Source: an uncultured Gammaproteobacteria bacterium
Lineage (GTDB): Bacteria > Patescibacteriota > Microgenomatia > Woykebacterales > RBG-16-39-9b
Direction: 5' to 3'
DNA length: 64,000 bases
Assembly: GCA_964367355.1 (NCBI GenBank)
Contig: CAYIWY010000003.1
Location: 36,919 to 100,918, forward strand
Program-made: the position numbers and the translations under genes
Shown here: piece after piece, positions 5,136-22,158 of the stretch
How positions within the stretch are numbered: the first letter of the stretch is position 1
Layout of the letters: each line of letters starts with the position of its first letter
Notes under the pieces: generated by a model
Databases searched by the model: none
Told to the model about the DNA's origin: nothing
Seen by the model: only the letters and a program-made list of their open reading frames with translations

Positions 5136-5178
5136 TCTCAGTGCAGTTGAATATTAGTGGAGTAACCAACAGGTTAAA

Positions 5179-6396
5179 TTAAGTTGAAGAAGTTGGAGTT
5201 TTCAGCATTTCAAAAGGTTTGAGGAGATCTTTTTCGGTACCAACTCTGAGTTTTATTTCTGCTTCAGTCTCGAAATTTTTCGGGTTGTGTTCAAAATAGC
5301 TGGCTAAGTTTAAGCTTGAGCGTAGGGTACCTAGGGCAACAATTACTCTTCCTTCTTCCTCCCGACCTTCTCTAGCATACGAAGCAATCATTTCTTTATC
5401 AAACGCTTCCTGGAACACAGGATTGTTCCAAGCACGGGCCCGCATATTGCCAAAATCATAAGCAGCTGCAAGCACTTCGTTTTGACTTATTCCCGCCCAT
5501 TCGAAATCCAGTCCGATAAATTTGTCACTGGCAAGGCCATCGCCGAGAAAAATATTGTTGGGGGCAAAGTCACCGTGGACAACGTGCTCTCCTTTTCCCT
5601 GATTTCGCTCGATAACCGGGCTAACTTGTTCGAGTAGTTGATCGATTCTTTGCACTAGGTCTGGGGTCTTGGTTTTTTCCGCCATTAGAGCAGCAAATAC
5701 ATGTTTTTCGGGAGAAAAATCATCTTCCGTACCGCTCACTTGTCGCGAGAGAATTTTTACTAGATTGGCCCGAAAACCAATATAATCGCTAAAAGCGGCC
5801 TTCTTGTCCAGAACCGCCCTTACTTCCGGGGTTAGTTTTTCTTCCTGATGACTCAGATCTCTAATGGCTTTAACAGCTTCGATTGCGTGCTCAGCAGTCA
5901 ATTCCTTGCTATCCTCGATAGTATACAAAAAGCCGACACCCTCACCTTTTTGATACCAGTTCATAACTGCATACATTGGTCCTTGAGCCTCTTGTGTATT
6001 GGTGTCAAGAACTTCCGTTACCGGAAAGTCAGTCCGCTCGTCCAAATAGTCTTGAACTTTGATTTGGCGAATGAAAAATTCCTTATGCTTCGCTTCTTTG
6101 ACTTGGTCAGGATCTGGAAGCGGGGCTTTAAAGAATCTTTCTTTCAGTAGTAGGCGATTGTCGGTTTCGTTTTGGTCAAATTCAACAACATGGAGTCTCA
6201 TATATCTATCACCGTGAATCTGTGTGTTCCAATCGTCCTGTGAATAAAAAAGATGGTGTTTCTCCAGTATTTTTTTAATATCACTTTCCCATTTTTCCTT
6301 TTTAACTTCGAAGGGGGATTTTTCAATGGGAATGTATGTTTCCGAAGGTTTTGAAGAAGTGTTAGTCGGCTCTGGTTTTGGAGCTTCTTGAGCCAT
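5179..6396 (-). CDS. APH/choline-kinase-like phosphotransferase (protein kinase-like fold)
   Basis: Catalytic loop HGDFAPNNIF (Brenner HxDxxxxN motif) followed by LDFEWAG (DFG-equivalent). Confidence 0.6.
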   Translation of the reverse strand: MAQEAPKPEPTNTSSKPSETYIPIEKSPFEVKKEKWESDIKKILEKHHLFYSQDDWNTQIHGDRYMRLHVVEFDQNETDNRLLLKERFFKAPLPDPDQVKEAKHKEFFIRQIKVQDYLDERTDFPVTEVLDTNTQEAQGPMYAVMNWYQKGEGVGFLYTIEDSKELTAEHAIEAVKAIRDLSHQEEKLTPEVRAVLDKKAAFSDYIGFRANLVKILSRQVSGTEDDFSPEKHVFAALMAEKTKTPDLVQRIDQLLEQVSPVIERNQGKGEHVVHGDFAPNNIFLGDGLASDKFIGLDFEWAGISQNEVLAAAYDFGNMRARAWNNPVFQEAFDKEMIASYAREGREEEGRVIVALGTLRSSLNLASYFEHNPKNFETEAEIKLRVGTEKDLLKPFEMLKTPTSST

Positions 6397-6509
6397 TGGA
6401 GGTGGAGATTCGAGAACACTAGTTTCAGACCATTAACTAAATCATAGAGACCCTCTGGTCTGAAATCAACCTTTAGACCAGGTTCGAGATAAAAGTTGTT
6501 TAGTAGTAA

Positions 6510-6842
6510 CTAACTTGGGTTTTCGGGAAGGTTCTTCTCCTTAGCTTTTTCACGCTCGTAATCTGCCTCGAAAGTTTCAATAAAAGCATCTAGGGCTAGA
6601 TCGCCAATTTCCTCAACATTTTTGCCAGTTCGTTGTTCGTAAAGTTTTGCAATCAATAGATTGACCTCTTCCTCTTTTGCTGCTTCGATTTCAGCCAAAT
6701 CTTCTTCAGTCAAAGCAGCGATAATCTCCATATGAGCCTTTTGAGCAATAGTATTGTTGAGGTTTGTCACAAATTCACCAATTTGGTCTTCCTTCAAACC
6801 CTCTTTTTTCAAAATTTCCAAAACACTATCAAGTTTATTCAT
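6510..6842 (-). CDS. Small acidic protein (candidate chaperone or immunity partner of the upstream 826-aa protein)
   Basis: 110 aa, Glu/Asp-rich, predicted helical; overlaps the 826-aa gene by 8 nt on the same strand. Confidence 0.4.
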   Translation of the reverse strand: MNKLDSVLEILKKEGLKEDQIGEFVTNLNNTIAQKAHMEIIAALTEEDLAEIEAAKEEEVNLLIAKLYEQRTGKNVEEIGDLALDAFIETFEADYEREKAKEKNLPENPS

Positions 6843-9315
6843 TAATTAGTTCCTCAGCGATTTCTTCAGATGCCCTTCTTTCAAAGAAATCAGTTATATC
6901 AGCAATATCGTTAAGCGAAAGAATCTTAAGTTTTTGGTTGACTGGAATCCAGTCTAAGCTAGTTTGCAGGTCATGAAACGCACCAGCATCACCACCTCGA
7001 GCGTGTTCTATTAAAGCGAGAACTTCTTGTTGGGTTGGAAAGTTGTTTGTGGCTAGACCAGATTCAACCATACGATTGTGCGTTTCAGCTAGCAGCTGAT
7101 GATTGGCAAGAATATGACCGCCAAAAAGATCTGCGTCAGCACTTGTCCAAGTAACTCTGTGCCCGTTATTTTGCAGGAGAGTTGAGACAGTATCTCCTTG
7201 ATGAATGTCGACCAAGTTACCAACATCTGCACTTGTCAAAGTATCGATCAGCGGGTTGGTATCAATACCAACTTCTGCCAAACGTCCAGCTTCATACAGC
7301 CGACCAACATCCGACCATTGTTCACTGGTGAGTGATGTAAAGGTTTTCCAGGCTTCAGGGTCCTGATGGATTCGATTAATCAGATCGATTTGATCTTGAG
7401 AAAGAGGTGGTAGACCTTCGGGTAAGGACGTTTCGAGATTACCTACATTAGGTGAATCTGGACCACCGTTTAGTTTATGCTCTACAAATTTATCAATATC
7501 GAAGAATTGATTGGTAATTCCTTGGGTAATTGCACCAACTTTCATCCCGGCGGAAAAACTTCGAATCCGTTCGTTGGCTTTACTGTATTTGAAAACTTTG
7601 TTTTGAAGTTCTTGGGTGAGTGTTTCAACGATCGGGTCGAAGGAATCTTTTTCGCTATAACCCATCCGGGACAATAAATCTTGGGAAATGCGGGTCATCT
7701 TTGTTTGGTATTCGGTTAAACCACTCGTTTTCAGAAGACGACTGGCTCGGTCGTATTGGTCTCTATAACTTCGAACGTCGATAGATTTAAGGCCCTCTTC
7801 ACTTAAATTGTTGACGTTTTGTCTAATGCTTCGCTCAATACCGCGAAGTCTTAGTGAGTTGACCCCGCTTGAAAGCAGATGCGTGACAGCGGTCGTTCCA
7901 ACTGAATTAATCAGGCTGCCGGCACCTGGAAGTACCAGATTAAGTGCGGTGTTGGTAGTGAAACCAGTGGCAATACCAGCTGCCCAGGCAACTTTGTCTT
8001 TGTCACGCCAATCAAAGTTATTGAGGTAGCGCTGCGCACTTTCATAAACAAAATTACCGCCTGGAGTTTTCAAAGCAACTGCGCGGGCAACTTCGGCAAC
8101 TTTTACTCTGGCAGTTTCGGCTACGGAGAAAATACGACTTGCATGAGACGGTTTATCTTTCTCTGATTCAGGTTCAGTAGGATCGCTATTCTTAACTTTA
8201 TCCACAAATTCCTTGATTTTACTATCAAGCTCGTCAGCTTTACCTGCTTGGCTTTCAGCCATCAACCGATCCATCTCAGAGGAAGTAAGTTGTACTTTTG
8301 AATCTGTATTGGCTTTTGGTTGTTCAGTTGGGGTTGTTGGATTAACTCCTTCAGGCCTTTCTTTAGGCGGATTTGCATTTTGTCTTTCGAGAAAACTGCG
8401 CGCGTATTCAATTTCTTGTTCGGGGGTGAGTAATATTTCCCGACCATCTCCAGTGGTATAAACTCTATATTTTTGTCCAAGCTCGTGTTCCCTTTGTTCG
8501 GAAAATCTTAAGTCCCCCAGCAGCTCACCCGAATGGGTTATTTCAGAGACTAGATTATGAGCTGAAGTTGTGAGTGGATCCTGGTCGATCTTTTCCGGTT
8601 CCGACAGAGTTTGTATTGAAGGGGGCTCTGCAGTTTCTGTTGTCGCAGCCACCAGTGCTTCTCGTTCAACTGCCTGTCTTTGTACCTCAGAGTTAATAAG
8701 ACTACTTAGATCTCCAGAAACATCTTCCGCTTGTCGGTGTTGGCTTTCATCTGGAGGTGCAATGGTTTGAGGAGATATTAAAGTTTCGACTTGACCAGGG
8801 TTGCTAGCGAAGTGTTCCATTGTTTCACGTGGTCCCAGAGCTTCTATTTCTTCAGGTGTAAGGCCTTGCTGGGGGAGAAGGATTGCTTTGGCAAATCTGA
8901 CTGCCTCGAGGTCGGCTTTGCCGGTTTGTCTGAAATTATTGACTGTGGTTTGAAATTCGGCTAACTCGTCCCTACGTTGGGAATTATTTTCCTTTCCCGA
9001 AGGTGGGGGGCCAGGAATTTCTGGGGTTTCGTCGTTTGGACTAGCAGAGTGTACAACTGATGTTTCTGGTCGAGCATCGATTCTGGTTGCATTTAGTCCA
9101 CTATGGCGTTCTAGCTCTTCCTGAGTTGGAAAATCAGTGATATTTGGTGGTCGTTCCCCTCCACCACGATGTAAGCGGTCTTGATCAGAACGGTCTGAAA
9201 TTTGTGCAGGATCAGCTCGAGAAGGAGCACGTTCTTGTACCTCGTTTTGGTTTGAGAAACTGTCCCCGCCAGAAGGAGCGTTTTCTGAAAAAGGAGAATT
9301 TTCGGCAGAATTCAT
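6835..9315 (-). CDS. Large hypothetical protein (826 aa) with low-complexity N-terminal third and a Gly-rich hydrophobic hairpin
   Basis: Long ORF. N-terminal ~330 aa is Pro/Ser/Glu-rich and disordered. Internal AWAAGIATGFTTNTALNLVLPGAGSLINSVGTTAVTHLL is a glycine-zipper-like hydrophobic segment. No recognisable catalytic motif. Confidence 0.5.
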   Translation of the reverse strand: MNSAENSPFSENAPSGGDSFSNQNEVQERAPSRADPAQISDRSDQDRLHRGGGERPPNITDFPTQEELERHSGLNATRIDARPETSVVHSASPNDETPEIPGPPPSGKENNSQRRDELAEFQTTVNNFRQTGKADLEAVRFAKAILLPQQGLTPEEIEALGPRETMEHFASNPGQVETLISPQTIAPPDESQHRQAEDVSGDLSSLINSEVQRQAVEREALVAATTETAEPPSIQTLSEPEKIDQDPLTTSAHNLVSEITHSGELLGDLRFSEQREHELGQKYRVYTTGDGREILLTPEQEIEYARSFLERQNANPPKERPEGVNPTTPTEQPKANTDSKVQLTSSEMDRLMAESQAGKADELDSKIKEFVDKVKNSDPTEPESEKDKPSHASRIFSVAETARVKVAEVARAVALKTPGGNFVYESAQRYLNNFDWRDKDKVAWAAGIATGFTTNTALNLVLPGAGSLINSVGTTAVTHLLSSGVNSLRLRGIERSIRQNVNNLSEEGLKSIDVRSYRDQYDRASRLLKTSGLTEYQTKMTRISQDLLSRMGYSEKDSFDPIVETLTQELQNKVFKYSKANERIRSFSAGMKVGAITQGITNQFFDIDKFVEHKLNGGPDSPNVGNLETSLPEGLPPLSQDQIDLINRIHQDPEAWKTFTSLTSEQWSDVGRLYEAGRLAEVGIDTNPLIDTLTSADVGNLVDIHQGDTVSTLLQNNGHRVTWTSADADLFGGHILANHQLLAETHNRMVESGLATNNFPTQQEVLALIEHARGGDAGAFHDLQTSLDWIPVNQKLKILSLNDIADITDFFERRASEEIAEELINE

Positions 9316-9383
9316 TGTTGAGTAAATTATATGCGAGTTTAGCTTAGCTCGTCAAACAAATAGTAAAGTCAGGATTTTGGGAT

Positions 9384-9644
9384 TTATCTTTGCTTGTAAA
9401 CTTCTTTCCTGTGGGCAACCGTAACCACCAAGATTAGTAATTCTTTTTTAAATATTTCGTAGAGAATTCTATAGACCCCGACCCTTAGAGATCGAAGATG
9501 ACCAAGTGGTGGGTCTAATTTTTTTCCTGCCAAAGGGTTTGTTGATAGAGCGTCTATGGAGTACTTGATGGCTTTTTGGTAACGAGGGTCTATTTTAGCG
9601 AGCTGTTTTTTTACCTTAGAATCAATCTGTATCTTATACATCAA
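9384..9644 (-). CDS. RelE/ParE-family type II toxin
   Basis: 86 aa; ...LRSLRVGVYRILYEI...VVTVAHRKEVY pattern typical of RelE/ParE; 4-nt overlap with upstream Phd-like gene. Confidence 0.8.
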   Translation of the reverse strand: MMYKIQIDSKVKKQLAKIDPRYQKAIKYSIDALSTNPLAGKKLDPPLGHLRSLRVGVYRILYEIFKKELLILVVTVAHRKEVYKQR

Positions 9645-9910
9645 AGATTAAGTTCTTCTTTAACCTGTTCCCAAGGAATAGCTTTACCTTCTCGAAATTC
9701 TTTCTCTGCTTGGCGAATATCTTTCATCAATTGCTCATCAGAAAGAATTTCAAGTGTTTCCTTCCAACCGTCAAATTCGTCAACCGACATAATGATGGCA
9801 CGAGGTTTGCCATTCTTAGTAATTTCTATTTGTTCGAACTTATTATTGACTTCATCAACAAGTTCGGTAAGTTTTTCTCGAGCTTCTGTTACTGGTAAGG
9901 TTCTTCTCAT
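9641..9910 (-). CDS. Phd/YefM-family antitoxin
   Basis: 89 aa; N-terminal TVTEAREKLTELVDEV and ITKNGKPRAIIMSVDEFDGWKETLEIL are Phd/YefM hallmarks. Confidence 0.8.
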   Translation of the reverse strand: MRRTLPVTEAREKLTELVDEVNNKFEQIEITKNGKPRAIIMSVDEFDGWKETLEILSDEQLMKDIRQAEKEFREGKAIPWEQVKEELNL

Positions 9911-9917
9911 AACTAGT

Positions 9918-9949
9918 AAACTTTACATAATTGTGTAAAGTTTGTCAAC
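9918..9949 (-). promoter_or_regulatory. Putative TA promoter/operator: 9-bp perfect inverted repeat adjacent to TTGACA -35 (read on the minus strand)
   Basis: Minus-strand reading gives TTGACA followed by AACTTTACA-caatta-TGTAAAGTT palindrome, directly upstream of the phd-like start. Confidence 0.45.
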
Positions 9950-9993
9950 AGAAAATTTAATCTAGCTTTTATGCTGCGGAGCACCGACCAATC

Positions 9994-10040
9994 CGCATTT
10001 TTTGAAGCGTTGTTTTAATGGTACAACATTAGAGTAACTC
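9994..10040. repeat. Diverged duplicate of the secA 3' end (copy 4, coding tail only)
   Basis: Reverse strand translates to ...NVVPLKQRFKKCGLVGAPQHKS*, homologous to the intact SecA tail ...GLKYKRCGLINSPTHQEN... Confidence 0.55.
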
Positions 10041-10045
10041 ACCCA

Positions 10046-10080
10046 TTGACAAATTGTACACAAAGTAGTACAAATTATGT
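10046..10080 (+). promoter_or_regulatory. Putative promoter/operator of the phd-relE pair 2 (TTGACA, TGTACA inverted repeats)
   Basis: TTGACA at 10046-10051, 17-nt spacer, TACAAA; TTGTAC...GTACAA inverted repeat overlaps the spacer. The TSS would fall at or near the ATG (leaderless). Confidence 0.4.
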
Positions 10081-10335
10081 ATGAGTGACTTAATATCTAT
10101 CTCCGATGCACGAACCAATCTTCCCGACCTTGTTACTAAGGTTAGTAACAATATGAGTAGGGTAATAATTACTGTTAACGGCAAGCCCAGAGCTACCCTT
10201 GTGAGTTCCGAAGAGTTAGAATCCCTTGAGGAAACAGCAGAAATTCTTTCTATTCCAGGTGCAAAGAAAAGTATTACGGAAGGCTTGAAACAGGCAAAAA
10301 AGGGACAAGGTATTTCTCTAAGCCAGTTAAAATAA
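10081..10335 (+). CDS. Phd/YefM-family antitoxin
   Basis: ISISDARTNLPDLV...VNGKPRATLVSSEELESLEETAEIL. Confidence 0.8.
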   Translation: MSDLISISDARTNLPDLVTKVSNNMSRVIITVNGKPRATLVSSEELESLEETAEILSIPGAKKSITEGLKQAKKGQGISLSQLK

Positions 10336-10339
10336 GCTT

Positions 10340-10588
10340 ATGGAAGTTATTATTACTCCAAAGGCTAGTAAGCTCTACAATCAAATTCCCAAAACTGAAC
10401 AACTTAAAATCAAAAAGAAACTTCTTGTACTTGATCATAATCCCTTTGATGGTAAGAAGCTTTCTGGAAATTTCTCAGGGTTAAGATCCTTGAGAGTATG
10501 GCCATATAGAATAATTTATTACGTCGACGAAAAGTTAAAGAAAGTATTTGTTGTTACAATTGCCCATCGACAAGGTGTGTACGAATAA
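10340..10588 (+). CDS. RelE/ParE-family toxin
   Basis: 82 aa; LRSLRVWPYRIIYYVD...VVTIAHRQGVY. Confidence 0.8.
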   Translation: MEVIITPKASKLYNQIPKTEQLKIKKKLLVLDHNPFDGKKLSGNFSGLRSLRVWPYRIIYYVDEKLKKVFVVTIAHRQGVYE

Positions 10589-10592
10589 ATAC

Positions 10593-10690
10593 TGTTAAGC
10601 CTTAGCCTTAGCCATATTTTCTTGGTGTGTCGGGCTATTTATATTACCACATTTTTTGAAGTGCTTGTTTAATGATATAGCATTAGATTC
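10593..10690. repeat. Diverged duplicate of the secA 3' end (copy 1)
   Basis: Reverse strand encodes ...SLNKHFKKCGNINSPTHQENMAKAKA*, near-identical to the last 16 codons of intact secA; ~85-90% nt identity to 13190-13260 and 11520-11606. Confidence 0.7.
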
Positions 10691-11094
10691 TTAGCGAATT
10701 TATTTTTTACTTTATTTAAGAGTTTCTCGTCAGCAGTATAAAAGTCTATTCCTAGATATTCGGCGAGTGCCAAATAAGAAGCATCGTAGGAGGATATGTT
10801 AAACTCGACTGCTGCCTCTAGTGTGGAAATTAAAAGTTCAGAAGTTGAGTAACTTACTAAGTCAAGAGATAAAAAGCCTTTATAAGCTTGGTTTGCTAGG
10901 GTCTTTTCAACCCTTAAGGTAGTTATTGCTGTTTTTAATATGTTGTTTAGTTCGTAGTAAATTAAGGTTGGGACGCAAATTCTTAATTGGCCTTCAATAA
11001 AGTCTTTTTGGATTTGAAGAGCTGTTTCGGAATTTTCTTCAGAAGGGAAAAACCACTTGGCTACGACCGAAGAGTCAACAATGATAGTTTTCAC
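10669..11094 (-). CDS. PIN-domain toxin (VapC-like)
   Basis: MKTIIVDSSVVAKWF... N-terminal PIN signature with conserved acidic residues. Confidence 0.75.
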   Translation of the reverse strand: MKTIIVDSSVVAKWFFPSEENSETALQIQKDFIEGQLRICVPTLIYYELNNILKTAITTLRVEKTLANQAYKGFLSLDLVSYSTSELLISTLEAAVEFNISSYDASYLALAEYLGIDFYTADEKLLNKVKNKFAKNLMLYH

Positions 11095-11345
11095 CGTAGA
11101 TCTTTTTTAGAATTAGCGAGTAGCTCTCTTAGATCAAAATTACTTTCCTCTAGGCTACTTCTCAATCGGTTGATTGATTGTACTGCCTTTTTTTGGGAAT
11201 TAAGGTCTGTGACACGTTTCAATCCTGAAGCTAATGTATCATTAATCGTTTCTTGCAGAGTTGTGCTGCGTTCAAAGGCAATCGATCGAGACTGATCAAG
11301 AAGGTCTTTTCTAATTCTTATAGTAGTCCGTACGAAGTTTTTCAT
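11091..11345 (-). CDS. VapB-type antitoxin (putative)
   Basis: 84 aa, overlaps the PIN gene by 4 nt, upstream position. Confidence 0.5.
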   Translation of the reverse strand: MKNFVRTTIRIRKDLLDQSRSIAFERSTTLQETINDTLASGLKRVTDLNSQKKAVQSINRLRSSLEESNFDLRELLANSKKDLR

Positions 11346-11380
11346 AACTAAAACCTAGCATCTTGTCATCAAGATGTCAA

Positions 11381-11399
11381 TATATATATATATATATAT
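11381..11399. repeat. (TA)9 dinucleotide microsatellite
   Basis: tatatatatatatatatat directly upstream (minus strand) of the vapBC operon start. Confidence 0.9.
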
Positions 11400-11430
11400 T
11401 TTTAATGTCCTCGGTAACTTTGTAGATACC

Positions 11431-11606
11431 ACAAGGAGGTAATAAGTTATAGATCTCTTCGAGCTCTGCGTCCACTTTGTGGGCTAAAACACCCTGAAAT
11501 TAGTGGCGTTTTAGGCTTTAGCCTTGGCCAAATTTTCTTGATGTGTCGGGCTATTTATATTTCCACATTTTTTGAAGTGCTCTTTTAATGGGATACACAT
11601 AGATTC
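11431..11606. repeat. Diverged duplicate of the secA 3' end plus its 3' flank (copy 2, most complete)
   Basis: Reverse strand encodes ...MCIPLKEHFKKCGNINSPTHQENLAKAKA* then ~90 nt matching the region downstream of the secA stop (13110-13189). Confidence 0.7.
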
Positions 11607-11692
11607 AATATATGATTAATAACAAAATGTTGCAACTTTTTAAGACGTATGATAATATGACGATGGTTCTGAAAAGAACCCCATAATTTGCT

Positions 11693-11737
11693 AACTCCCC
11701 CCAGTTCTTTACGACCTGGGGGTTTTTGGTTGCTAAA
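11693..11737 (+). terminator. Rho-independent terminator-like hairpin (CCCCCCAG...CTGGGGG + TTTTT)
   Basis: 7-8 bp GC stem, ~10-nt loop, T5 run; nothing obvious upstream on + strand except a 24-codon ORF. Confidence 0.4.
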
Positions 11738-11767
11738 AACTATTATCACTTATAGAATAGATAGGTT

Positions 11768-12307
11768 ATGAAAAAGGTCTTAGTACAATTTGACGGTAGT
11801 AATTTCTACAACAAGGTTAAAAAACTTTTGCCTTCTACTCATTTAACAAATTTTGATTACGCTGGTTTGGCCAAATCTATTATAGAAGATAAACAAGCAG
11901 AGATTACTTATTATGTTGGTGAGATAAGAAAATACCCAGGAAACAAAAAATCTCAAAGTCTTTATGCGAACCAACAGTCACTTTTCCTAAACTTAAGAAA
12001 GCAGGGACTTGAAGTAAAACTTGGCTACCTTTTGTTTTCTGGCGGAGTTTATCACGAAAAAGGTGTTGATGTTCAAATTGCGGTTGATATTGTTCGCGGA
12101 GCTATCAAAAATGAGTATGATAAATGCTACTTAATTTCCTCAGACACAGACCTTTTACCAGCTATTCAAACTGCTAAAGATGAGGGCAAACAGATTATTT
12201 ATGTTGGATTTGAGAATTTTATCAGCCGAGCACTTGCTAATAATTGTTCGTCTAGCGTAATTCTTAAAAAGAAGCAGATTCAGGTTTTTTCTGAAAAAGT
12301 TGAATAA
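11768..12307 (+). CDS. NYN-domain (LabA/PIN-like) putative RNase
   Basis: VLVQFDGSNFYNK ... VDVQIAVDIV ... ISSDTDLLPAIQ...GKQII: conserved Asp framework of NYN/LabA domains. Confidence 0.65.
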   Translation: MKKVLVQFDGSNFYNKVKKLLPSTHLTNFDYAGLAKSIIEDKQAEITYYVGEIRKYPGNKKSQSLYANQQSLFLNLRKQGLEVKLGYLLFSGGVYHEKGVDVQIAVDIVRGAIKNEYDKCYLISSDTDLLPAIQTAKDEGKQIIYVGFENFISRALANNCSSSVILKKKQIQVFSEKVE

Positions 12308-12326
12308 ATAAAAATCCCCTTTACAC

Positions 12327-12335
12327 CCCCCCCCG
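12327..12335. repeat. Poly-C homopolymer tract (C9) in the intergenic region upstream of 12364 ORF
   Basis: cccccccccc run. Confidence 0.9.
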
Positions 12336-12363
12336 TTTCTTTTGCTACCACCAAAATGCTAAA

Positions 12364-13071
12364 ATGGCAGCTATGGTTACAGGTGAATACCAACTTAAAC
12401 AAAAAGAACTTTTTGATAATTTGGAGGCGAAGCTCAAAAAAGGTGAGAGCTCTGTTACACTAGTTGAACCAGTTAAAGACTACGTCAACGACAGGAGAAC
12501 CTGTTTAACAAGTGTCGTTTTTATCCCGACAGAACTTCAAGAGAAAATATTAGATAAGGTTATTAGCCCTCTTAAAGAAGCGGATACTAGGCAATACTAT
12601 TACGTTCCAAACTCTTTTCATTTAACAATTCAAAACATAAAAACAATCAACGAGCCGCCTTCTTTTAATGAAAATGATATTGAACTAGCAAGGGAAGTAT
12701 TTCAGGAGGTAATTTCCAAGTTTAAATCTATTAATTTTCAAATAGCAGGGATTTTTGAACTTCCCACTAGTTTATCCCTACGTGCGTATTCTGACGAAAC
12801 ACTAAAAGATTTGGCTTTAGCTTTAAGAAAAAAGTTGAAAGAAGCTGGTGTGCCTGATAACAAAACATATGCTTCAGAGGAGGTAGTGTTCGGTAATATC
12901 AGTATTTCTAGATATACTTCTGATCCTAATCAGGCTTTCTTTGAGCAAGTGGAACAATTAAAGAACGTTGAGATAGGGGTTTTAAAAGCCTTTACGGTTT
13001 CTTTAATCACAACTAATTCTATTTGCCACCCAGATAAAACGAAAATTATTGAGAAATTCAATTTGCAATAG
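12364..13071 (+). CDS. Hypothetical protein, possibly degenerate 2H-phosphoesterase (LigT-like) fold
   Basis: One clear HxTx motif (FHLTIQN) and a second position with N in place of H (GNISISRY). Weak call. Confidence 0.25.
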   Translation: MAAMVTGEYQLKQKELFDNLEAKLKKGESSVTLVEPVKDYVNDRRTCLTSVVFIPTELQEKILDKVISPLKEADTRQYYYVPNSFHLTIQNIKTINEPPSFNENDIELAREVFQEVISKFKSINFQIAGIFELPTSLSLRAYSDETLKDLALALRKKLKEAGVPDNKTYASEEVVFGNISISRYTSDPNQAFFEQVEQLKNVEIGVLKAFTVSLITTNSICHPDKTKIIEKFNLQ

Positions 13072-13109
13072 CTTTGAAGCCAAAAACTTGATATTTGAGT
13101 AAAAAATTT

Positions 13110-13189
13110 GAGACTCCACATGGAGGTCATAAGTTATAGATCGCTTCGCGCCCTGCGACCACTGGTAGTTTAGAGAAATCAGTGGCGTT
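13110..13189 (-). other. secA 3' flank (3' UTR) conserved with copy 2; contains hairpins
   Basis: ~85% identical to the corresponding part of 11431-11520; CCACUG...CAGUGG and CUCCA-UG-UGGAG stems. Confidence 0.4.
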
Positions 13190-15898
13190 TTAGGCTTTAG
13201 CCTTGGCCATATTTTCTTGATGTGTCGGGCTATTTATTAAACCACAACGTTTATACTTTAGACCACTACCGCACGGACAAGGGTCGTTGCGGCCGATTTT
13301 GTCGTCAGTGCGAACTACACGAGTTACGGTTGGGGCGGAAGTTGACGAGCTCGATGTGGTGGTGTGTTGGTGGCCCTCGTGACCTTTTTGCTGTTCTTGA
13401 GGAGCGATTTGAACTTTATAAATTCGGTGGGCGATTTCAAAATCAATATTGTGAATCAACTCTTCAAAAAGCTTGAAAGCCTCGGCTTTGTACTCGACTA
13501 GTGGATCCTTGCCGGCATAACCGCGCAGGCCGACCCCTTCACGAAGTTCATCAACATCGTCAAGATGGTTGACCCAAAGAGTATCGATCACGGAAATCAT
13601 AACCAGTTTTTCGATTTCACGTTCTATTTCTGATCCTACTTGTTTTTCTCTTCCGTCAAAAACTTCATGGGCGATGTTTGTTAACGACTCTTTTATTTTG
13701 GTCGGGAATTTTTCTTCTTTAATTTTTTCAGCTAAAGACTTTTTGGTTGGTTCGTCAAAGGGAATAATAGTTACAAATTCATTTAAAATTCTTTCTTCCT
13801 CGACTGTTTCAGCTTCACCGGTTGCAAGATCAACTAAGCTTTCTATTTCAACATCAATTTTTTCCAGGATTCTTTCTTTTAGTTCTTTTTGAGCCTCTAC
13901 TTTATTTTCGTTTTGACGATCCCCAAGTTTCAGAATTTCGCGGCGCATTGAGTAGATTATTTCTCGTTGCTTATTCATTACATCGTCATATTCGACAACT
14001 CGTTTTCGAGCGTCGAAGTTTTGGCCCTCGACTCGGGACTGGGCTGATTCAATCGCTTTGCTCACAAGGCCTGCTTCGATCGGAACCTCGTCAGGCAATT
14101 TGAAAGCGTTCATGACTCGCTCGACAGCGTCTCCACCGAAAAGTCGCATCACATCATCTTGCAAAGAAACAAAGAAACGAGTTGAACCAGGATCACCTTG
14201 TCTTCCGGAACGACCACGAAGTTGGTTGTCGATTCGACGAGCCTCGTGTCTTTCGCTTCCAATAACGTGCAAGCCTCCAAGTTTGGCAACACCTTTGCCA
14301 AGTTTGATATCGACTCCACGTCCGGCGATATTGGTTGCTAGTGTAACTGCCCCTTCTTGTCCGGCAGCAGCAATAATTTGTGCTTCATGTTCATGATTTT
14401 TGGCGTTCAAAAGTTCAAACGGAACACCCCTTCGTTTTAGAAGATCACCAAGTAGTTCATTTTTTTCGATTGAAGTTGTTCCAACCAAAACTGGTTGTCC
14501 TATTTTATGCTTCCCGGCAATATCTTCAATAATCGCGCTGTACTTACCCTTTTCGTTTTTGTAGACCAGATCAGAAAGATCCTCTCTGATCGTGGGTCTA
14601 TTGGTTGGAATTACAACAGCATCAAGTTTGTAAACTTTATGAAATTCTTCAGCTGAGGTAACCGCAGTTCCGGTCATCCCGGCTAATTTATTGTACAGTC
14701 GGAAATAATTTTGGAAAGAAACTGTTGCCATGGTTTGACTTTCACGTTGAATCTCGACCCCTTCTTTGGCTTCGATTGCTTGGTGCAGGCCTTCGCTGTA
14801 ACGGCGGCCGGGCATTAGTCGGCCGGTAAACTCGTCAACGATGATGACCTCACCTTCTTTAACAACATAGTCTCGATCTTTGAAAAAAAGAGTTCGGGCT
14901 TTGAGCGCTTCTTCAATGTGATGGACGCTGTCAAAATCTTTTTCATATAAATTATCGACTCCGGTCATGCGTTCGATTTTGGAAATTCCAATTTCAGTTA
15001 AATTGGCAGTTTTCATTTTTTCGTCAACTACGTAATCAGTCTTGTCGGTCAATTTGTCGATGATTTTGGCAAACTCGTAGTATTTTTCAGTTGATTCCTC
15101 AGCGGCTTGGGAAATAATTAACGGTGTTCTGGCTTCATCGATCAAGATCGAATCGACTTCGTCAACAATCGCAAAATTCAAATCTCGCTGGACCATATTG
15201 TGTAGATCTTGGGCCATATTGTCGCGGAGATAGTCAAAACCGTACTCATTGTTGGTGCCATAAGTAATATCAGCTAGATAAGCCTGATTGCGGTTAACTT
15301 CTCTCAAAAATTTTCCGACACCTAAGCCTTCTTGCTCCGGGGAAAGTGATTCTTCCGGATCCATCTTCACCTCGACTTCCTCAGTTGCGGGTGTCTTTGG
15401 GTCAGGATCAAAAACGTAGGATACTTCATGGTTGATTACTCCAACTGAAACTCCCAGTGCGTGAAATATCGGTCCCATCCACTCAGCATCACGTTTTGCC
15501 AGATAATCATTTACAGTAACTAAATGAACACCTTTGCCTTCAAGTGCATTTAGATAGAGGGGGAGAGTAGCAACTAAAGTTTTTCCTTCTCCGGTACGCA
15601 TTTCCGTAATTTTTCCTTGGTGAAGCATTATCCCACCCATGAGCTGAACGTCGAAATGACGTTGTCCGATGCTGCGACGGGCAGCTTCCCGAACTGCCGC
15701 AAAAGCTTCTGGAAGTAGTTCATTAAGTGTTTCACCATCGCTTAAACGTTTTTTAAATTCGCCTGTTACAGCCTTTAATTTTGAATTTGAGAGTTTTTTA
15801 AAATCAGCTTCGTGGGAGTTAGTTAGCTCAACAAAAGCTTTTAGTTTTTTAATTTCACGTTCGTTTGAATCTAGTAAATTTCCAAGTATTTTGAACAT
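13190..15898 (-). CDS. secA: Preprotein translocase ATPase SecA
   Basis: 902 aa; DEAD motor motifs (MRTGEGKTL, LVTVNDYLAKRD, DEVDSILIDEARTPLIIS); C-terminal zinc finger CPCGSGLKYKRC followed by an unusual 16-aa extension shared with the duplicated fragments. Confidence 0.95.
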   Translation of the reverse strand: MFKILGNLLDSNEREIKKLKAFVELTNSHEADFKKLSNSKLKAVTGEFKKRLSDGETLNELLPEAFAAVREAARRSIGQRHFDVQLMGGIMLHQGKITEMRTGEGKTLVATLPLYLNALEGKGVHLVTVNDYLAKRDAEWMGPIFHALGVSVGVINHEVSYVFDPDPKTPATEEVEVKMDPEESLSPEQEGLGVGKFLREVNRNQAYLADITYGTNNEYGFDYLRDNMAQDLHNMVQRDLNFAIVDEVDSILIDEARTPLIISQAAEESTEKYYEFAKIIDKLTDKTDYVVDEKMKTANLTEIGISKIERMTGVDNLYEKDFDSVHHIEEALKARTLFFKDRDYVVKEGEVIIVDEFTGRLMPGRRYSEGLHQAIEAKEGVEIQRESQTMATVSFQNYFRLYNKLAGMTGTAVTSAEEFHKVYKLDAVVIPTNRPTIREDLSDLVYKNEKGKYSAIIEDIAGKHKIGQPVLVGTTSIEKNELLGDLLKRRGVPFELLNAKNHEHEAQIIAAAGQEGAVTLATNIAGRGVDIKLGKGVAKLGGLHVIGSERHEARRIDNQLRGRSGRQGDPGSTRFFVSLQDDVMRLFGGDAVERVMNAFKLPDEVPIEAGLVSKAIESAQSRVEGQNFDARKRVVEYDDVMNKQREIIYSMRREILKLGDRQNENKVEAQKELKERILEKIDVEIESLVDLATGEAETVEEERILNEFVTIIPFDEPTKKSLAEKIKEEKFPTKIKESLTNIAHEVFDGREKQVGSEIEREIEKLVMISVIDTLWVNHLDDVDELREGVGLRGYAGKDPLVEYKAEAFKLFEELIHNIDFEIAHRIYKVQIAPQEQQKGHEGHQHTTTSSSSTSAPTVTRVVRTDDKIGRNDPCPCGSGLKYKRCGLINSPTHQENMAKAKA

Positions 15899-16001
15899 AA
15901 TTTTTCAAAGCAGCGCCTAGTATAACATTGGTGAGAAAAAAAGGCTAGAGTACTCTAAACGAGGTTCAAAATCAATAGTTGACAAAAAATTTCAATTAGC
16001 T

Positions 16002-16076
16002 ACTTTGCGAAGCAATGTGAGTGAAGTGATACTTTGCGAAGCAATGTGAGTGAAGTGATACTTTGCGAAGCAATGA
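16002..16076. repeat. Tandem direct repeat, 29-bp unit x 2.6 (ACTTTGCGAAGCAATGTGAGTGAAGTGAT)
   Basis: Two perfect and one partial unit; no spacers, so not CRISPR. Lies in the secA upstream region. Confidence 0.9.
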
Positions 16077-16135
16077 AACGATTCAGCTCTTGACAAAAAA
16101 TCTCTATCGTTTATTATCTTCTCGGGTGTTACCCT

Positions 16136-16170
16136 AACCCCGACTCTGCAAAGAGCCGGGGTCTTTTTTT
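16136..16170 (+). terminator. Rho-independent terminator-like hairpin just upstream of the RAYT gene
   Basis: AACCCCGACTCT-gcaa-AGAGCCGGGGT + CTTTTTTT; preceded by TTGACA-16-TATTAT. IS200-family left ends are known to carry such terminators. Confidence 0.5.
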
Positions 16171-16211
16171 CCTTTGACAAAATTCTACCCCAGGGGTATC
16201 CTGTCTATAGG

Positions 16212-16784
16212 ATGAGCACCCCTATTAGACATTTTCAACAAAATAGTTACTATCACGTTTTTAATAGAGGTAACCACAAAAGTGACATTTTTCTCAATCC
16301 GTACGATTATTTACGGTTTCTTGAAAAAATTGAAGAATATAAGGATAAATGTCAGATAAAAGTTTTGTGTTTCTGTTTAATGCCGAATCATTTTCATTTA
16401 CTTTTGCAACAACTCAGTGACATACCGTTGACTAAATTTATGCTTTCTCTATCAACAAGTTATTCAAAGTACTTCAATATTAAATATGACCAGGTTGGGA
16501 GACTGTTTCAGGAAAGATTTAGAGCGGTTGAAGTCACTACTGATGAATATTTGTTGTATCTTACAAAATATATTCATCTTAACCCAACTAAACTTAAAGT
16601 TGATATTACAAAATATAAATGGTCCAGTTTAAATAATTACATTGATTATAGCGAATGGGATTTTGTTGAACCTGAACCTATTCTCAACTATTTTTCACAA
16701 ATAAATCCGAAAAAAGATTATTTGAATTTTGTGTTGGAAAATATATCAAATGTTGTTGGAGTTGAGAAGTTGTTAATCGATTAG
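16212..16784 (+). CDS. REP-associated tyrosine transposase / IS200-like TnpA (Y1 HUH)
   Basis: YHVFNRGN ... CLMPNHFHLLLQ (HUH motif) ... LTKYIHLNP (catalytic Tyr region), collinear with RAYT family. Confidence 0.8.
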   Translation: MSTPIRHFQQNSYYHVFNRGNHKSDIFLNPYDYLRFLEKIEEYKDKCQIKVLCFCLMPNHFHLLLQQLSDIPLTKFMLSLSTSYSKYFNIKYDQVGRLFQERFRAVEVTTDEYLLYLTKYIHLNPTKLKVDITKYKWSSLNNYIDYSEWDFVEPEPILNYFSQINPKKDYLNFVLENISNVVGVEKLLID

Positions 16785-16866
16785 TCTTATAATGTTGCTA
16801 CCCCTGGGGTTGAGCGGGATGTTGTTGGGCTTTGACACAACCTTTCAGTTTAAGTAATCTTATAGA

Positions 16867-17583
16867 GTGAAAATAGTAATTATTATCCCCACCTATTGCG
16901 AAGCAGCCAATATTATCAAATTAATTCCCGCCATCAAAAAACAAAAATCTTTGAATATGTATGAACCAGAACTTTTGGTTGTTGATGACAATAGCCCTGA
17001 CAAAACAGCCGATATAGTCCGAAATTTTATGAAAACAGATGAAAGAATCCATTTACTTACGGGAAACAAAATGGGTTTGGGAGCAGCTTATATTCGGGGG
17101 ATGAAGTATGCGATTGAGAAACTTGCAGCTGAAGTTGTGGTCGAAACTGACGCCGATTTTTCTCACGATCCGGGCGATATTTCGAGATTAATAAGTGAAA
17201 TTGAAAAAGGAGCTACTTTTGTTATTGGCAGTCGCTATATCGAGGGTGGAAAAATCAAAAATTGGTCGTTTTTTCGCCATTGGCTGAGTGGTTTGGGAAA
17301 TATAGTTGTTCGCAAAGCTTTGGGGTTACAAGAAGTTCAAGATTGTACCGCCGGGTTTCGGGCAATAAAAACTGATTTGATCAAAAAAGTTAATCTTGAT
17401 TCAATCAAAGCCAATGGTTACGCTTTTCAAGTTTGGTTGCTTTACAGTGCCTGCAAAGTGGGTGCCAAAATTAAAGAAGTTCCAGTAGAATTTGTCGATC
17501 GGCAGGTCGGGAAGACGAAACTTGGGTTTTGGGATATAATTGAAGGAATTATTATTTTGTTCAAGTTAAGAACAATAAAGTAA
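16867..17583 (+). CDS. GT2 polyprenol-phosphate mannosyl/glycosyltransferase (DPM1-like)
   Basis: GTG start; IIIPTYCEAANI ... LLVVDDNSPDKT ... TDADFSHDP ... VIGSRY: DPM1/GtrB-type GT2 motifs (DxD, DADxSHxP). Confidence 0.8.
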   Translation: MKIVIIIPTYCEAANIIKLIPAIKKQKSLNMYEPELLVVDDNSPDKTADIVRNFMKTDERIHLLTGNKMGLGAAYIRGMKYAIEKLAAEVVVETDADFSHDPGDISRLISEIEKGATFVIGSRYIEGGKIKNWSFFRHWLSGLGNIVVRKALGLQEVQDCTAGFRAIKTDLIKKVNLDSIKANGYAFQVWLLYSACKVGAKIKEVPVEFVDRQVGKTKLGFWDIIEGIIILFKLRTIK

Positions 17584-17627: not shown

Positions 17628-18614
17628 ATGAAGATCCCTCCTTCGTATACAGTTACTCCAGAAATGCTGGGGTTTATTGCCAAAATTGAAGCTGAGCGAT
17701 TGCATATTGCATCCCTTACCCTCCCAAAACCTCTAAAAGAAAAAATCCAAAGAGTTAGCCTTTTAAAAAGCTCTCTTTTTTCAGCTCGTATTGAAGGAAA
17801 CCCACTTAAACTTGCAGATGTTGACACAGGAAATAAAAAATCCCAAAAGAAAATAGAAGTATTCAATATCACAAAAGCAATAAGGTTTATAGATGGTCAT
17901 GTAAGAAAAGGTGATCTAAAGATTGATACTCTTTTACAGATTCACATGCTGGTTCTCAAAAATCTAAGTCCTGGTGCCGGTCACATAAGAGCCACGGCAA
18001 GTGCGATTTTCAACCAGGCTGGTGTTGCCGTTTACATGCCACCGCCACCTCGTTCTATTTCAAAGTTGCTAGACGATTTACTCTTCTTTGTTAACTCGGA
18101 TACGGAAAAGTTTCCTCTTATAGCCGCTTTTGTTGCTCATCTTGTCTTTGAAAAAATCCACCCTTTTTTAGACGGAAACGGGAGAGTAGGTAGGCTTCTT
18201 ATTTCCTCAATACTAAAATCCCGCGGTTGGGATTTTACTTTCTCCGTACCATTCGAAGAATATCTAGATAACCACAAAGATGATTACTATTTTCACTTGG
18301 ACAAGGGGCAAGTTGATACTAATGATTATTTGCTTTTTATGCTTGAGGCTTTCTGGCAACAAACTCAAACTATAAAAGCTCAAATCGAAGAAGAATTAGC
18401 TCGTGGCGACAAAGTGTTTTTACCTCCAAGGCAGGAGGAGATATACAATGTAATACGCGATCATAAAGTTGTTCCTTTTGATATGATAAGGCGTAGGTTT
18501 GTTAAGGTACCAGAAAGGACGTTGCGATACGATTTAAAGAAACTTTTAGATAGAGAGCTTATTGAAAAAAGCGGAGAAACAAGAGGGCGGTTTTACCGAG
18601 TTAAGAACAAATAG
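17628..18614 (+). CDS. Fic/Doc-family protein (AMPylator-type) with N-terminal inhibitory motif
   Basis: Fic motif HPFLDGNGRVGR; N-terminal SARIEGN matches the [S/T]xxxE[G/N] auto-inhibition helix of class II Fic; C-terminal wHTH-like region. Confidence 0.85.
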   Translation: MKIPPSYTVTPEMLGFIAKIEAERLHIASLTLPKPLKEKIQRVSLLKSSLFSARIEGNPLKLADVDTGNKKSQKKIEVFNITKAIRFIDGHVRKGDLKIDTLLQIHMLVLKNLSPGAGHIRATASAIFNQAGVAVYMPPPPRSISKLLDDLLFFVNSDTEKFPLIAAFVAHLVFEKIHPFLDGNGRVGRLLISSILKSRGWDFTFSVPFEEYLDNHKDDYYFHLDKGQVDTNDYLLFMLEAFWQQTQTIKAQIEEELARGDKVFLPPRQEEIYNVIRDHKVVPFDMIRRRFVKVPERTLRYDLKKLLDRELIEKSGETRGRFYRVKNK

Positions 18615-18689
18615 TTGTACAAAACTTACCTTATTTTTCCAGTTAATATATAATTGAGGGAATTATTATTTTGATTAAATTAAGAATTT

Positions 18690-19613
18690 ATGTCTAAAGT
18701 AATTGTTGCCGGAGGAGCTGGGTTTCTCGGCTCTCACATAAATAAAGTACTACTTGATCAAGGTCACCAAGTTCGTGTTATAGACAATTTATCGACTGGT
18801 TTTAAAGAAAACATCGATCCACGTGCCGAATTTGTTCAAGTGGATTTGGCCTCTCAAGATGAATTAGCAAAATCACTTTCAGGATTTGAGGCTGTAATTC
18901 ATTTAGCCAATTCAATCATCGTCCCGGAGTCAGTTGAAAAACCGGTAGAATATGCAGAGAACAATGTAGTTAACAGCGTAAAATTGCTTGAAGCGATGAA
19001 GGAAGCTGGAGTTAGAAAGATAATTTTTTCCTCTTCGGCAACAGTTTACGGAGACAGCGGAAAACTGCCGTTGACTGAAAGTAGCCCACTTGGAGTTCAA
19101 AACAATCAATATGGAGCTTCCAAAGTTGCCATGGAAGCTTTTATTGGGGTTTATCACAAGCTCTACAATTTCGACACAATTATTTTGCGTTATTTCAATC
19201 CATTTGGACCAAATGAAAAACACGAGCCGGAAACTCACGCAATTCCAAATTTTATTCAGGCAGCCTTAAAGAAAGAAGAAATCCCACTTTACTGGAAAGG
19301 CGAGCAAGTCCGCGATTTTATTTATGCTCCAGATTTGGCCGAAGCTCACTCGGCTGTTTTGGACCTGAAAGGTTTACAAATATTTAATGTCGGAACGGAG
19401 ACTGGAACAAAAGTTATTGATACAGTTCACGAAATCTTCAAAATAGTCGGTTACGAGGTTCCAATCAAAGATTTAGGGGAAAGAGCTGGGGACGCTGCTG
19501 CAACTTACGCTAGTTCAGAGAAACTGATGTCGACTACTGGTTGGAAGGCAAAACACTCACTTCACGACGGGTTAGTTAAAACTATCGAATATTTCAAAAA
19601 CCAAAATGATTAA
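18690..19613 (+). CDS. NAD-dependent sugar epimerase/dehydratase (GalE-like)
   Basis: Rossmann GGAGFLGSH; catalytic YGASK; short-chain dehydrogenase/reductase (SDR) extended family. Confidence 0.8.
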   Translation: MSKVIVAGGAGFLGSHINKVLLDQGHQVRVIDNLSTGFKENIDPRAEFVQVDLASQDELAKSLSGFEAVIHLANSIIVPESVEKPVEYAENNVVNSVKLLEAMKEAGVRKIIFSSSATVYGDSGKLPLTESSPLGVQNNQYGASKVAMEAFIGVYHKLYNFDTIILRYFNPFGPNEKHEPETHAIPNFIQAALKKEEIPLYWKGEQVRDFIYAPDLAEAHSAVLDLKGLQIFNVGTETGTKVIDTVHEIFKIVGYEVPIKDLGERAGDAAATYASSEKLMSTTGWKAKHSLHDGLVKTIEYFKNQND

Positions 19614-20583
19614 CGAGAAGAAAATTGTTGTTATTGGTGGAGGAACCGGGACTTATACTGTCTTGTCTGGGCTAAAAAAAATTTCTGCCCAAATTACCGC
19701 GGTTGTGACCATGATGGACTCCGGTGGGTCTTCAGGACGTTTGCGCGACGAGTTTGGACAACTTCCAACCGGAGACGTCCGTCAGGCTTTGGTGGCGCTA
19801 AGTAACGACTCTTCCGTAATGCGACAGCTGTTCAATTATCGATACGAAAAAGGGGAAGGTCTGCAAGGACATAGTTTTGGAAACCTTTTTTTAACCGCCC
19901 TTGCTGAGGTAACCGGGGGGATGGAAAATGCCCTACAAGAGGCTGGAAGAATTTTGAATATTAAAGGCAGTGTTCTTCCGGTTACATTATCTAATTCCAA
20001 TTTAGTTGCCGAATATGAAAACGGACTGATAGTTAAGGGAGAAAATGATATCGATGTTCCGAAACATGATGGAAAACTTCATATAACGAGACTTTCTTTG
20101 GAGCCAAAAGCAGCACCTTTTGAAAAAACCCTTGCTGCAATCTCCCAAGCAGATTTAATCATTCTTGGTCCAGGGGATATTTATACCAGTTTAATCCCAA
20201 ACCTTGTAGTTCCAAAAGTTGCTGATGCAATTTGTAATTCAAAAGCCAAAAAGGTTTATATTGTTAACCTAATGACAAAGTTTGGCCAAACCTACAATTT
20301 TAAAGCCAGCAATTTTGTCGCTGAAATAGAAAAATATTTAGGAAAATGTTTAGACTATGTTTTGATCAATAATAAAGATTTACCAGAGGCTATTATTGAA
20401 CGTTACAAGGCCGAAAACGATTCTCCAGTGGAAGATGATCTTAACGACTCAAACTACAAAGTTATCAGAGAAGATTTGCTGGCAACCGAACCAATTGAAA
20501 GAAAAGCTGGTGATGTTCTTCAAAGAAGCCTGATTCGTCATGATTCTGATAAACTTTCACAAATACTTACAACTTTAGTTTAA
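19606..20583 (+). CDS. yvcK: YvcK/CofD-like (UPF0052) gluconeogenesis factor family protein
   Basis: VVIGGGTGTYTVLSGLK ... VTMMDSGGSSGRLRDEFG ... PTGDVRQAL. Confidence 0.85.
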   Translation: MINEKKIVVIGGGTGTYTVLSGLKKISAQITAVVTMMDSGGSSGRLRDEFGQLPTGDVRQALVALSNDSSVMRQLFNYRYEKGEGLQGHSFGNLFLTALAEVTGGMENALQEAGRILNIKGSVLPVTLSNSNLVAEYENGLIVKGENDIDVPKHDGKLHITRLSLEPKAAPFEKTLAAISQADLIILGPGDIYTSLIPNLVVPKVADAICNSKAKKVYIVNLMTKFGQTYNFKASNFVAEIEKYLGKCLDYVLINNKDLPEAIIERYKAENDSPVEDDLNDSNYKVIREDLLATEPIERKAGDVLQRSLIRHDSDKLSQILTTLV

Positions 20584-20612
20584 ATTTATATATTGACATA
20601 ACTTTACGACAT

Positions 20613-22141: not shown

Positions 22142-22158
22142 GTTTACTTCATTGTGGG

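Follow-up and report, generated by a model that had tools for sequence, protein, structure and literature searches.

What has placed diverged copies of the 3'-end of secA downstream of the gene itself, each beside a small cassette of toxin-antitoxin or nuclease genes? The question is raised by a 64-kb stretch of DNA from Candidatus Woykebacteria (Candidate Phyla Radiation (CPR)/Patescibacteria), the host being identified by SecA homologs. This stretch is referred to here as the window; the term and all coordinates apply to the whole of it and not to the array alone. The locus is very probably an accretion array produced by repeated recombination within the last ~57 nt of secA. A copy of this tail together with a ~40-nt segment absent from real secA genes (the arm), with or without a copy of the secA 3'-flank, is designated a unit.

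The secA gene is intact, and the C-terminus of the predicted protein reads ..CPCGSGLKYKRCGLINSPTHQENMAKAKA*. Its 3'-end (13190-13246) recurs at 11511-11567, at 10595-10651 and, as a shorter variant, at 9962-9997. By self-BLAST, the real tail and its flank (13104-13246) share 82.5% identity over 143 nt with 11416-11558 (E 2.6e-33), 10595-10690 shares 85.4% over 96 nt with 11511-11606 (E 1.3e-24), and 10595-10651 shares 87.7% over 57 nt with 13190-13246 (E 1e-12). Two 27/28-nt patterns each occur at exactly 3 places in the window and nowhere else in it, and shuffled sequences are expected to give 0. The diverged tail copies reported in a first-pass annotation of this DNA are thus real by self-BLAST, pattern and profile searches, and only their coordinates required slight refinement. 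The degenerate fourth copy had been placed at 9994-10040; it exists, with an E value of 1.9e-16 against a profile of related units in nhmmer, and is now located at 9962-10034. The copy described at 11431-11606 was said to include ~90 nt of the 3'-flank, and this segment is ~95 nt long (11416-11510, matching 13104-13189). Because identical SecA occurs on contigs from five independent samples with the same array within each contig's reach, the array is not an assembly artefact. These contigs all stop 132 nt upstream of secA.

The arm is found on the secA-proximal side of copies 2 to 4 (Table). It is ~40 nt long with the form GTACCATTA-N5-6-GCACTTCAARAARTGYGG, and in these copies reads ..CTAATGnnGTACCATTAAAnnAGCACTTCAAAAAA, joined to TGTGG. 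It is not present in any real secA gene, which reads ..GSGLKYK[KR]CG at that point. The arm-tail junction (AARAARTGYGG) is at one position in all 19 distinct units that were aligned, and the blocks CCATTA and CACTTCAA, with variable positions between them, are invariant in at least 12 species. When orthologous unit 4 sequences from the window and from L006, the locus of the closest relative, are compared, the arms are ~85% identical and the pseudo-tails ~67%, and the DNA just upstream cannot be aligned, leaving the arm as the best conserved stretch of otherwise unalignable intergenic DNA. The arm also extends to another lineage. In L090, a metagenome contig of 50% GC content, an AbrB/Doc-type gene pair lies between two copies of a different tail, ..ILNTEEHQRLLAGK*, a tail type that SecA fragments from another lineage carry as well. 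Of the two tail copies, the downstream one has the same arm (CATTAGGATTACACTTCAAAAAGTGCGG) in front of it, and a third copy of the arm is found further along (L090 1-800 and 3698-3721). The constancy of the arm, set against a tail that changes with the host, speaks for selection acting on the arm sequence. A further contig, L099, overlaps L090 identically around the unit.

An origin of the arm as the end of an ancestral vapC gene (LMLYH*) was considered and dropped, as the stop codon in CCATTAA is not conserved and TAC, TAT and TAG also occur there. In L006, two more short-type tail copies (10737-10880) are found in tandem right after the secA stop codon with a spacing of 69 nt and no genes between them. 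These are preceded by a different arm (..ACCACTTnGTnGnCTAAAGAAGTG) and may be scars of excision or unequal recombination.

Each tail copy bounds one cassette, as the first-pass annotation had proposed, with four tail copies and four cassettes in the window and the same relationship in 14 related loci. The gene content predicted earlier was supported by Pfam for the two ParE/Phd pairs, the PIN protein and the NYN protein. The 235-aa 2H-like protein and the VapB-like protein have no Pfam match even at E values up to 5, and the "2H-like" label rests on an HxT motif and on the name "2'-5' RNA ligase" given by JGI to several homologs. The 235-aa protein has homologs (50-66% identity) widely distributed among Microgenomates, and in two genomes that were checked these are located among housekeeping genes (NUDIX, NTPase, rpoB) away from secA, indicating that the arrays hold ordinary genes too. 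The stop codon of vapC in cassette 2 falls within the arm of unit 3. GC content is 0.365 in the array and 0.40-0.42 in the flanks.

Table. Location of the secA array, its units and cassettes, and of features at other loci with duplicated gene 3'-ends in the window.
Feature	Coordinates	Strand	Basis or remark
secA, 902 aa, intact, long form A tail ..KRCGLINSPTHQENMAKAKA*	13190-15898	-	ORF; SecA Pfam domains; homologs named Candidatus Woykebacteria SecA
Real secA tail, TGTGG...TAA, 57 nt (segment that recurs)	13190-13246	-	Self-BLAST, alignments, pattern search
secA 3'-flank, hairpin then T-run at end	13104-13189	-	Duplicated at 11416-11510
Cassette 1: NYN (11768-12307) and 235-aa 2H-like (12364-13071)	11607-13103	+ (antisense to secA)	Pfam NYN, E 1.4e-17
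Unit 2: arm 11568-11606, tail copy 11511-11567, flank copy 11416-11510	11416-11606	-	Self-BLAST, profile
Cassette 2: VapB-like (11091-11345, 84 aa) and PIN/VapC (10669-11094)	10669-11345	-	Pfam PIN
Unit 3: arm 10652-10690, tail copy 10595-10651, without flank	10595-10690	-	Self-BLAST, pattern, profile
Cassette 3: Phd antitoxin (10081-10335) and ParE/RelE toxin (10340-10588)	10081-10588	+	Pfam PhdYeFM, ParE_toxin
Unit 4: arm and short form B tail ..RFKKCGLVGAPQHKS (..CGLVGAPQHKS)	9962-10034	-	Profile
Cassette 4: Phd (9641-9910) and ParE/RelE (9384-9644)	9384-9910	-	Pfam PhdYeFM, ParE_toxin
826-aa gene, next after array, no function assigned	6835-9315	-	ORF; homologous in L006 only
cofD array (20589-24565), two paralogous VapB/PIN pairs	20613-21312, 21469-22141		Roughly 71-81% identical in repeated segments
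cofD array, Phd-like/PIN_3 pair	22211-22964		
cofD array, first cofD 3'-end copy	23042-23175		Readable as ORF 23021-23179
cofD array, DUF6922/AbiEii pair	23293-24188	-	
cofD array, second cofD-end copy	24355-24420		
Deacetylase island, AbiEii	41422-42084		
Deacetylase island, Replic_Relax protein	42087-42857		
Deacetylase island, two-gene pair (87 and 138 aa)	43109-43785		

Related secA loci were drawn from relatives with SecA proteins 95, 90, 88, 80, 79 and 77% identical (by exact-protein look-up), from species-representative genomes, and from a metagenome-wide search with the arm pattern. When 17 related loci and the window were scored with the unit profile, 23 full-length units were detected in 14 of the 17 loci, all downstream of secA and oriented as it is. 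For real secA ends, the match is limited to the tail half of the profile; the matches in the window are confined to the three units and the real tail, and L012, L014 and L103 contain a single secA tail. A dispersed repeat unrelated to cassette boundaries is ruled out, as no unit lies anywhere but behind secA, either in the window or in any metagenome match with informative context.

Cassette content varies between relatives, and homology breaks exactly at unit borders. L006 (secA 89% identical at the nucleotide level) carries a short tail, and its homology with the window ends at TGTGG within secA and is recovered at the units. An unrelated 386-aa gene replaces cassette 1 and a different PIN_3 pair replaces cassette 2, and the two loci then share unit 3, the ParE/Phd cassette and unit 4. 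L006 lacks cassette 4, the indel (9361-9991) beginning directly after the stop codon of unit 4. Cassette 1 is absent from L006, L007 and L008, and its NYN part is 73% identical to L013 13610-14228, where it occupies a different array position. Other combinations of partly the same cassettes are found in different slots in L007, L009, L010 and L013. Nucleotide identity of the ParE/Phd cassette is 80% to L006, 85-88% to L007 and 85% to L009, compared with 89, 80 and 69% for secA. The two are uncorrelated, and the history of the cassette therefore differs from that of secA. Cassette turnover is visible between species and not within the species represented by the window.

Woykebacteria SecA proteins have two types of C-terminus, the long form A (..LINSPTHQENMAKAKA) and the short form B (..LINAPQHKG). 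The most secA-distal unit is of form B in 8 of 9 complete arrays, and internal units are mostly of form A. Form B is also found in loci without full units (L012 and L014) and in more distant relatives, and on this sequence distribution is probably the ancestral tail. On a neighbour-joining SecA tree built without the tail, the two forms are interspersed and the tail type switches repeatedly, including within the sister pairs P0001/P0002, P0007/P0015 and P0042/P0043. The tail type of the window SecA differs from that of its 95%-identical relative, with the switch at TGTGG. Serial insertion at the live secA tail, with the newest cassette beside secA, fits this order and predicts the distal form B units, form B at array-free loci and the interspersed tree. 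In the real tail, identical synonymous codons are only modestly in excess, at 0.655 compared with 0.50 for the zinc-finger codons, which does not decide whether there is constraint at the DNA level.

The secA 3'-flank, which is partly conserved behind form A tails of other species, is probably a terminator, given a predicted hairpin and the T-run that follows it. The motif CCAC(A/T)nnGTGG(T/A)CGCAGnnnnCGAnnnnATC lies inside this flank (13111-13163) and its copy (11424-11476). It occurs once behind the short tail of L012 (10772-10800) and not in the flanks of L009, L011, L013 or L015. With a GTGG head and a palindrome it resembles a repetitive extragenic palindromic (REP) sequence, and a gene like that of a REP-associated tyrosine transposase (RAYT) is located nearby (see below).

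As to the agent, it is tentatively proposed that a recombinase supplied in trans acts site-specifically on the conserved arm, and this is favoured, with the same reserve, over RecA-driven recombination on the common tail. An incoming cassette, in circular or otherwise mobile form, would have the arm at one end and, at the other, a new tail for secA, in some cases followed by a 3' untranslated region and terminator. Crossover between the arm-tail junction of the cassette and the resident secA tail would keep secA intact, now with the cassette-borne tail, and would move the former tail, now prefixed by the arm, downstream. Repetition would stack cassettes with the newest beside secA. The arm would be the recognition site of a recombinase from the host or from a helper element, the cassettes encoding none, and toxin-antitoxin modules would remain because they resist deletion. 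Such an enzyme would account for why the boundary is fixed and the arm so deeply conserved. A broader and rather doubtful extension is that Microgenomates-group CPR bacteria possess a dedicated gene-capture platform in which the secA 3'-end is comparable to attI and the arm to attC, with a trans recombinase inserting and excising integrase-less cassettes and thereby swapping the SecA tail between two forms.

Several observations weigh against a site-specific reaction at secA. At three other loci in the window, duplicated gene 3'-ends surround inserted cassettes with no common arm. At the first, a Fic gene (17628-18614) is followed by a copy (18648-18690) of the last ~42 nt of a glycosyltransferase gene (17534-17575). 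The Fic insert sits between the glycosyltransferase gene and an epimerase gene, and the duplicated junction is the glycosyltransferase 3'-end overlapping the epimerase start. The junction is present twice in the window and once in L006, L007 and L008, which lack Fic. The end of cofD (19606-20583), at 20455-20588, recurs at 23042-23175 and 24355-24420, giving three copies in the window and one in L103, where cofD directly adjoins an ABC transporter gene. The starts of these copies do not coincide, falling 129 and 61-66 nt ahead of the stop codon, and no arm is common to them. The AbiE pair in the cofD array is 80% identical to a pair at another locus in L007. At the third locus, the end of a polysaccharide deacetylase gene (39485-40390), at 40314-40388, recurs 3.4 kb downstream at 43815-43889 (80% identity over 75 nt). 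All three cases match the class described as insertion with long target duplication, and for the glycosyltransferase/Fic and cofD cases the single copy at the empty site of a relative is shown directly. A target-independent process operates in this genome, and since the three loci lack a common arm and the cofD boundaries vary, a process that is not site-specific can yield the basic signature. The variable boundaries are a feature of cofD and not of secA, where the boundary is fixed and the arm conserved. At secA itself, the real tail and the unit 2 tail are identical at 56 of 57 positions beside flanks that are ~78% identical, a pattern expected from a crossover driven by homology; identity between units is no higher than 76-88%; and all assemblies with identical SecA have the same array, with no sign of current activity. 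No convincing inverted repeat of the recombinase type is present in the arm, and the palindrome TAATG-N6-CATTA is found in only about half of the units.

The search for an enzyme counts on the same side. Pfam scans detected no integrase inside the cassettes, in agreement with the first-pass annotation, and no tyrosine or serine recombinase among 46 window ORFs of at least 140 aa (four at 55961-63039 were left out) or among the genes checked downstream of secA in ~20 related loci. Searches of viral contigs with arm and tail patterns revealed no phage or plasmid contig with an arm-tail junction, and a match of L104 to a looser pattern is due to chance, as it falls inside a phage topoisomerase gene. 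The first-pass annotation had interpreted the locus as repeated site-specific integration at secA, by analogy with tRNA or tmRNA att sites. Serial insertion with regeneration of the reading frame and retention of old tails is upheld, but with no recombinase found and the same signature at three other genes of the window, neither site-specificity nor a special att-like status of secA is established.

Other recombination systems were also considered. Single-stranded DNA folds of units 2-4 on both strands are no better than those of shuffled sequences (z-scores -1.2 to +0.8), so that the units are not attC-like, and an integron was rejected on this ground and as no intI (no Phage_integrase-type match) is present in the window. 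GC skew stays positive over almost all of the window, with a cumulative curve that rises without reversal; as there is no skew switch at the locus, a Xer/dif site at the replication terminus was also rejected. No dif-like 11-6-11 site was recognised by eye, the dif site of this lineage itself not having been identified. Mobilisation of the IS200/IS605 or RAYT/REP type was rejected too, although a Y1_Tnp gene lies at 16212-16784, as the units are found only downstream of secA and have no hairpin signal. This is the only transposase-like gene among the scanned ORFs.

The fallback offered by the first-pass annotation, a recombination-anchored exchange, is a serious rival. It is possible that RecA-type general homologous recombination drives the accretion, the first insertion having duplicated the secA end and the tails having then served as portable homology. 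Recombination between direct repeats would excise circles or delete cassettes, transformed cassettes would re-enter by a Campbell-type crossover in the tail, and the arm would be merely the inherited junction of the first event. This would explain the lack of a recombinase gene, the three parallel loci with the shifting start points at cofD, and the 56/57 tail identity beside ~78% flanks, a block long enough for RecA. The AbiE cassette at a different locus in L007 and the presence of recO in the window are consistent with it, as are the reported competence and homologous recombination genes of Patescibacteria (PMC12455944), toxin-antitoxin islets without mobile-element genes for which spread via flanking core genes has been proposed (PMC13617665), and insertions of restriction-modification (RM) modules with long target duplication, documented mostly in naturally competent species (PMC2853133). 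However, an inherited junction should decay, whereas the arm blocks are invariant in at least 12 species and persist in the 50%-GC lineage with a different tail, and the arm is better conserved than the adjoining pseudo-tail and flank. All 23 units have one boundary, unlike the cofD duplicates, and the available homology is short (57-143 nt at 82-88%).

Two further explanations were weighed. The cassettes could be eroded integrase-bearing elements at the secA 3'-end, of which att sites and addictive toxin-antitoxin genes are left, in the manner of cis-mobilizable elements (CIMEs). Formation of CIMEs and their accretion at a target-gene end have been described (PMC5704250), toxin-antitoxin modules resist loss and can end as tiny islets (PMC13617665), and a TraG/VirD4-like coupling protein (134-2779) is encoded in the block that follows the array. 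This is nonetheless unlikely, because no integrase, intact or annotated, is found among the checked cassette genes of 14 arrays, ordinary genes (a 2H-like protein, redox genes, membrane proteins) are also present in cassettes, and viral contigs contain no intact element. Least likely is that the secA end underwent an ancient tandem duplication, inherited vertically and now slowly decaying with differential loss between lineages, the repeats being non-mobile or regulatory. Divergence of the copies (76-88% identity), fixation of the array within the species and the two extra tandem tails of L006 with nothing between them would be in keeping with it, but cassette identity does not track secA identity, unrelated cassettes occupy the same slots in close relatives, and tail type switches many times on the SecA tree. 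Nor do the units have an Rfam match, a fold signal, or a promoter or terminator signal above that of shuffled sequences. A fixed arrangement is seen among assemblies with identical SecA, which are all alike, and not between species, where the array is polymorphic.

Tandem accretion at the 3'-end of a housekeeping gene is known from the composite islands of the staphylococcal cassette chromosome (SCC) type, SCCmec, at rlmH/orfX. In E. coli, integration of phage 21 and e14 into the protein gene icd involves a duplicated 3'-end. CIMEs have been reviewed, and the integrative and conjugative elements (ICEs) ICESt1 and ICESt3 and CIMEs accrete at fda in Streptococcus thermophilus (PMC5704250). RM gene complexes can insert with long target duplication (Nobusato et al. 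2000; Furuta et al. 2010, PMC2853133). The array is closest to tandem accretion of the CIME/SCC type and to insertion with long target duplication. As in ICE, CIME and SCC arrays, the target gene stays intact (the full 902-aa secA ORF includes element-borne sequence), tandem elements lack integration genes, a newcomer enters at an att site that includes the gene end, and elements are flanked by direct repeats containing the target-gene 3'-end with the same boundary in all copies. In contrast to those systems, none of the arrays here was found to contain a partner with an integrase, cassettes are very small (0.6-1.5 kb), and the common segment extends over as much as 57-143 nt. The host, a CPR bacterium, and the target, the secA tail, also differ; no report of the secA tail as an integration site was found in the literature searched. 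With RM insertions the array shares addictive modules without mobility genes and direct repeats of >30 bp, in many cases overlapping a gene 3'-end, of which a relative's empty site has a single copy. It differs in that the cargo is toxin-antitoxin, Fic, AbiE or NYN genes instead of RM genes, the boundary at secA is fixed with a conserved non-target arm in every copy, and the secA cassettes are several deep at a site reused across the whole lineage.

Integron arrays and clusters of attC sites lacking integrases (CALINs) likewise consist of ordered, small, mostly integrase-less and toxin-antitoxin-rich cassettes with a recurring recombination-site-like repeat between them, and the newest cassette is expected beside the platform. 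In contrast, no IntI is found here, the units have no attC hairpin fold, cassettes are in both orientations, and the repeat is a copy of the end of a coding gene. At icd, too, the resident 3'-end gives way to a diverged one brought in by the element, with a pseudo-3'-end remaining on the distal side, but phage 21 and e14 are single large elements with their own integrase, whereas the secA locus is a multi-cassette array with none. New features are the CPR host, the secA-tail target, stacked tiny cassettes without integrases, a conserved arm, lineage-wide reuse and repeated replacement of the SecA C-terminus.

The regions on either side of the array include further features. Downstream, the block at 134-9315 contains genes for proteins of 826, 110, 405, 450 and 311 aa together with that of the 881-aa TraG/VirD4-like protein, inside which the contigs from other samples break. 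Only the 826-aa gene is seen in L006, whose contig stops inside it, and it is absent from L007. This block may be a larger integrated element with its far end beyond the window. Upstream of secA, a 29-nt tandem repeat is present in three copies (16001-16087), and a segment of ~80 nt (16090-16172), 80-89% conserved in eight relatives, may be a leader or regulatory element. The Y1 (IS200/RAYT-like) transposase gene is located between secA and the glycosyltransferase gene (region 15950-16866), and the equivalent region of L007 contains an AbiE pair instead. Elsewhere in the window, a 45-nt direct repeat (45341-45385 and 60936-60979, 84% identity, 15.6 kb apart) is unexplained.

The gain and loss of accessory genes in the ultra-small genomes of CPR bacteria are poorly understood, and the secA locus is a sequence-defined hotspot that has been reused across a candidate phylum-level lineage. 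Its junction motif can be searched for, with the prediction that the newest cassette lies beside secA and the ancestral tail at the far end. The last 10-16 residues of SecA, an essential protein, have been repeatedly replaced by mobile DNA. Four parallel cases in a single 64-kb window suggest that insertion of addiction and defence modules with duplication of a gene 3'-end is a general route by which foreign genes are accommodated where a genome has hardly any intergenic space. Should there be a recombinase that acts in trans, the secA arrays would represent a new cassette system outside the integron family.

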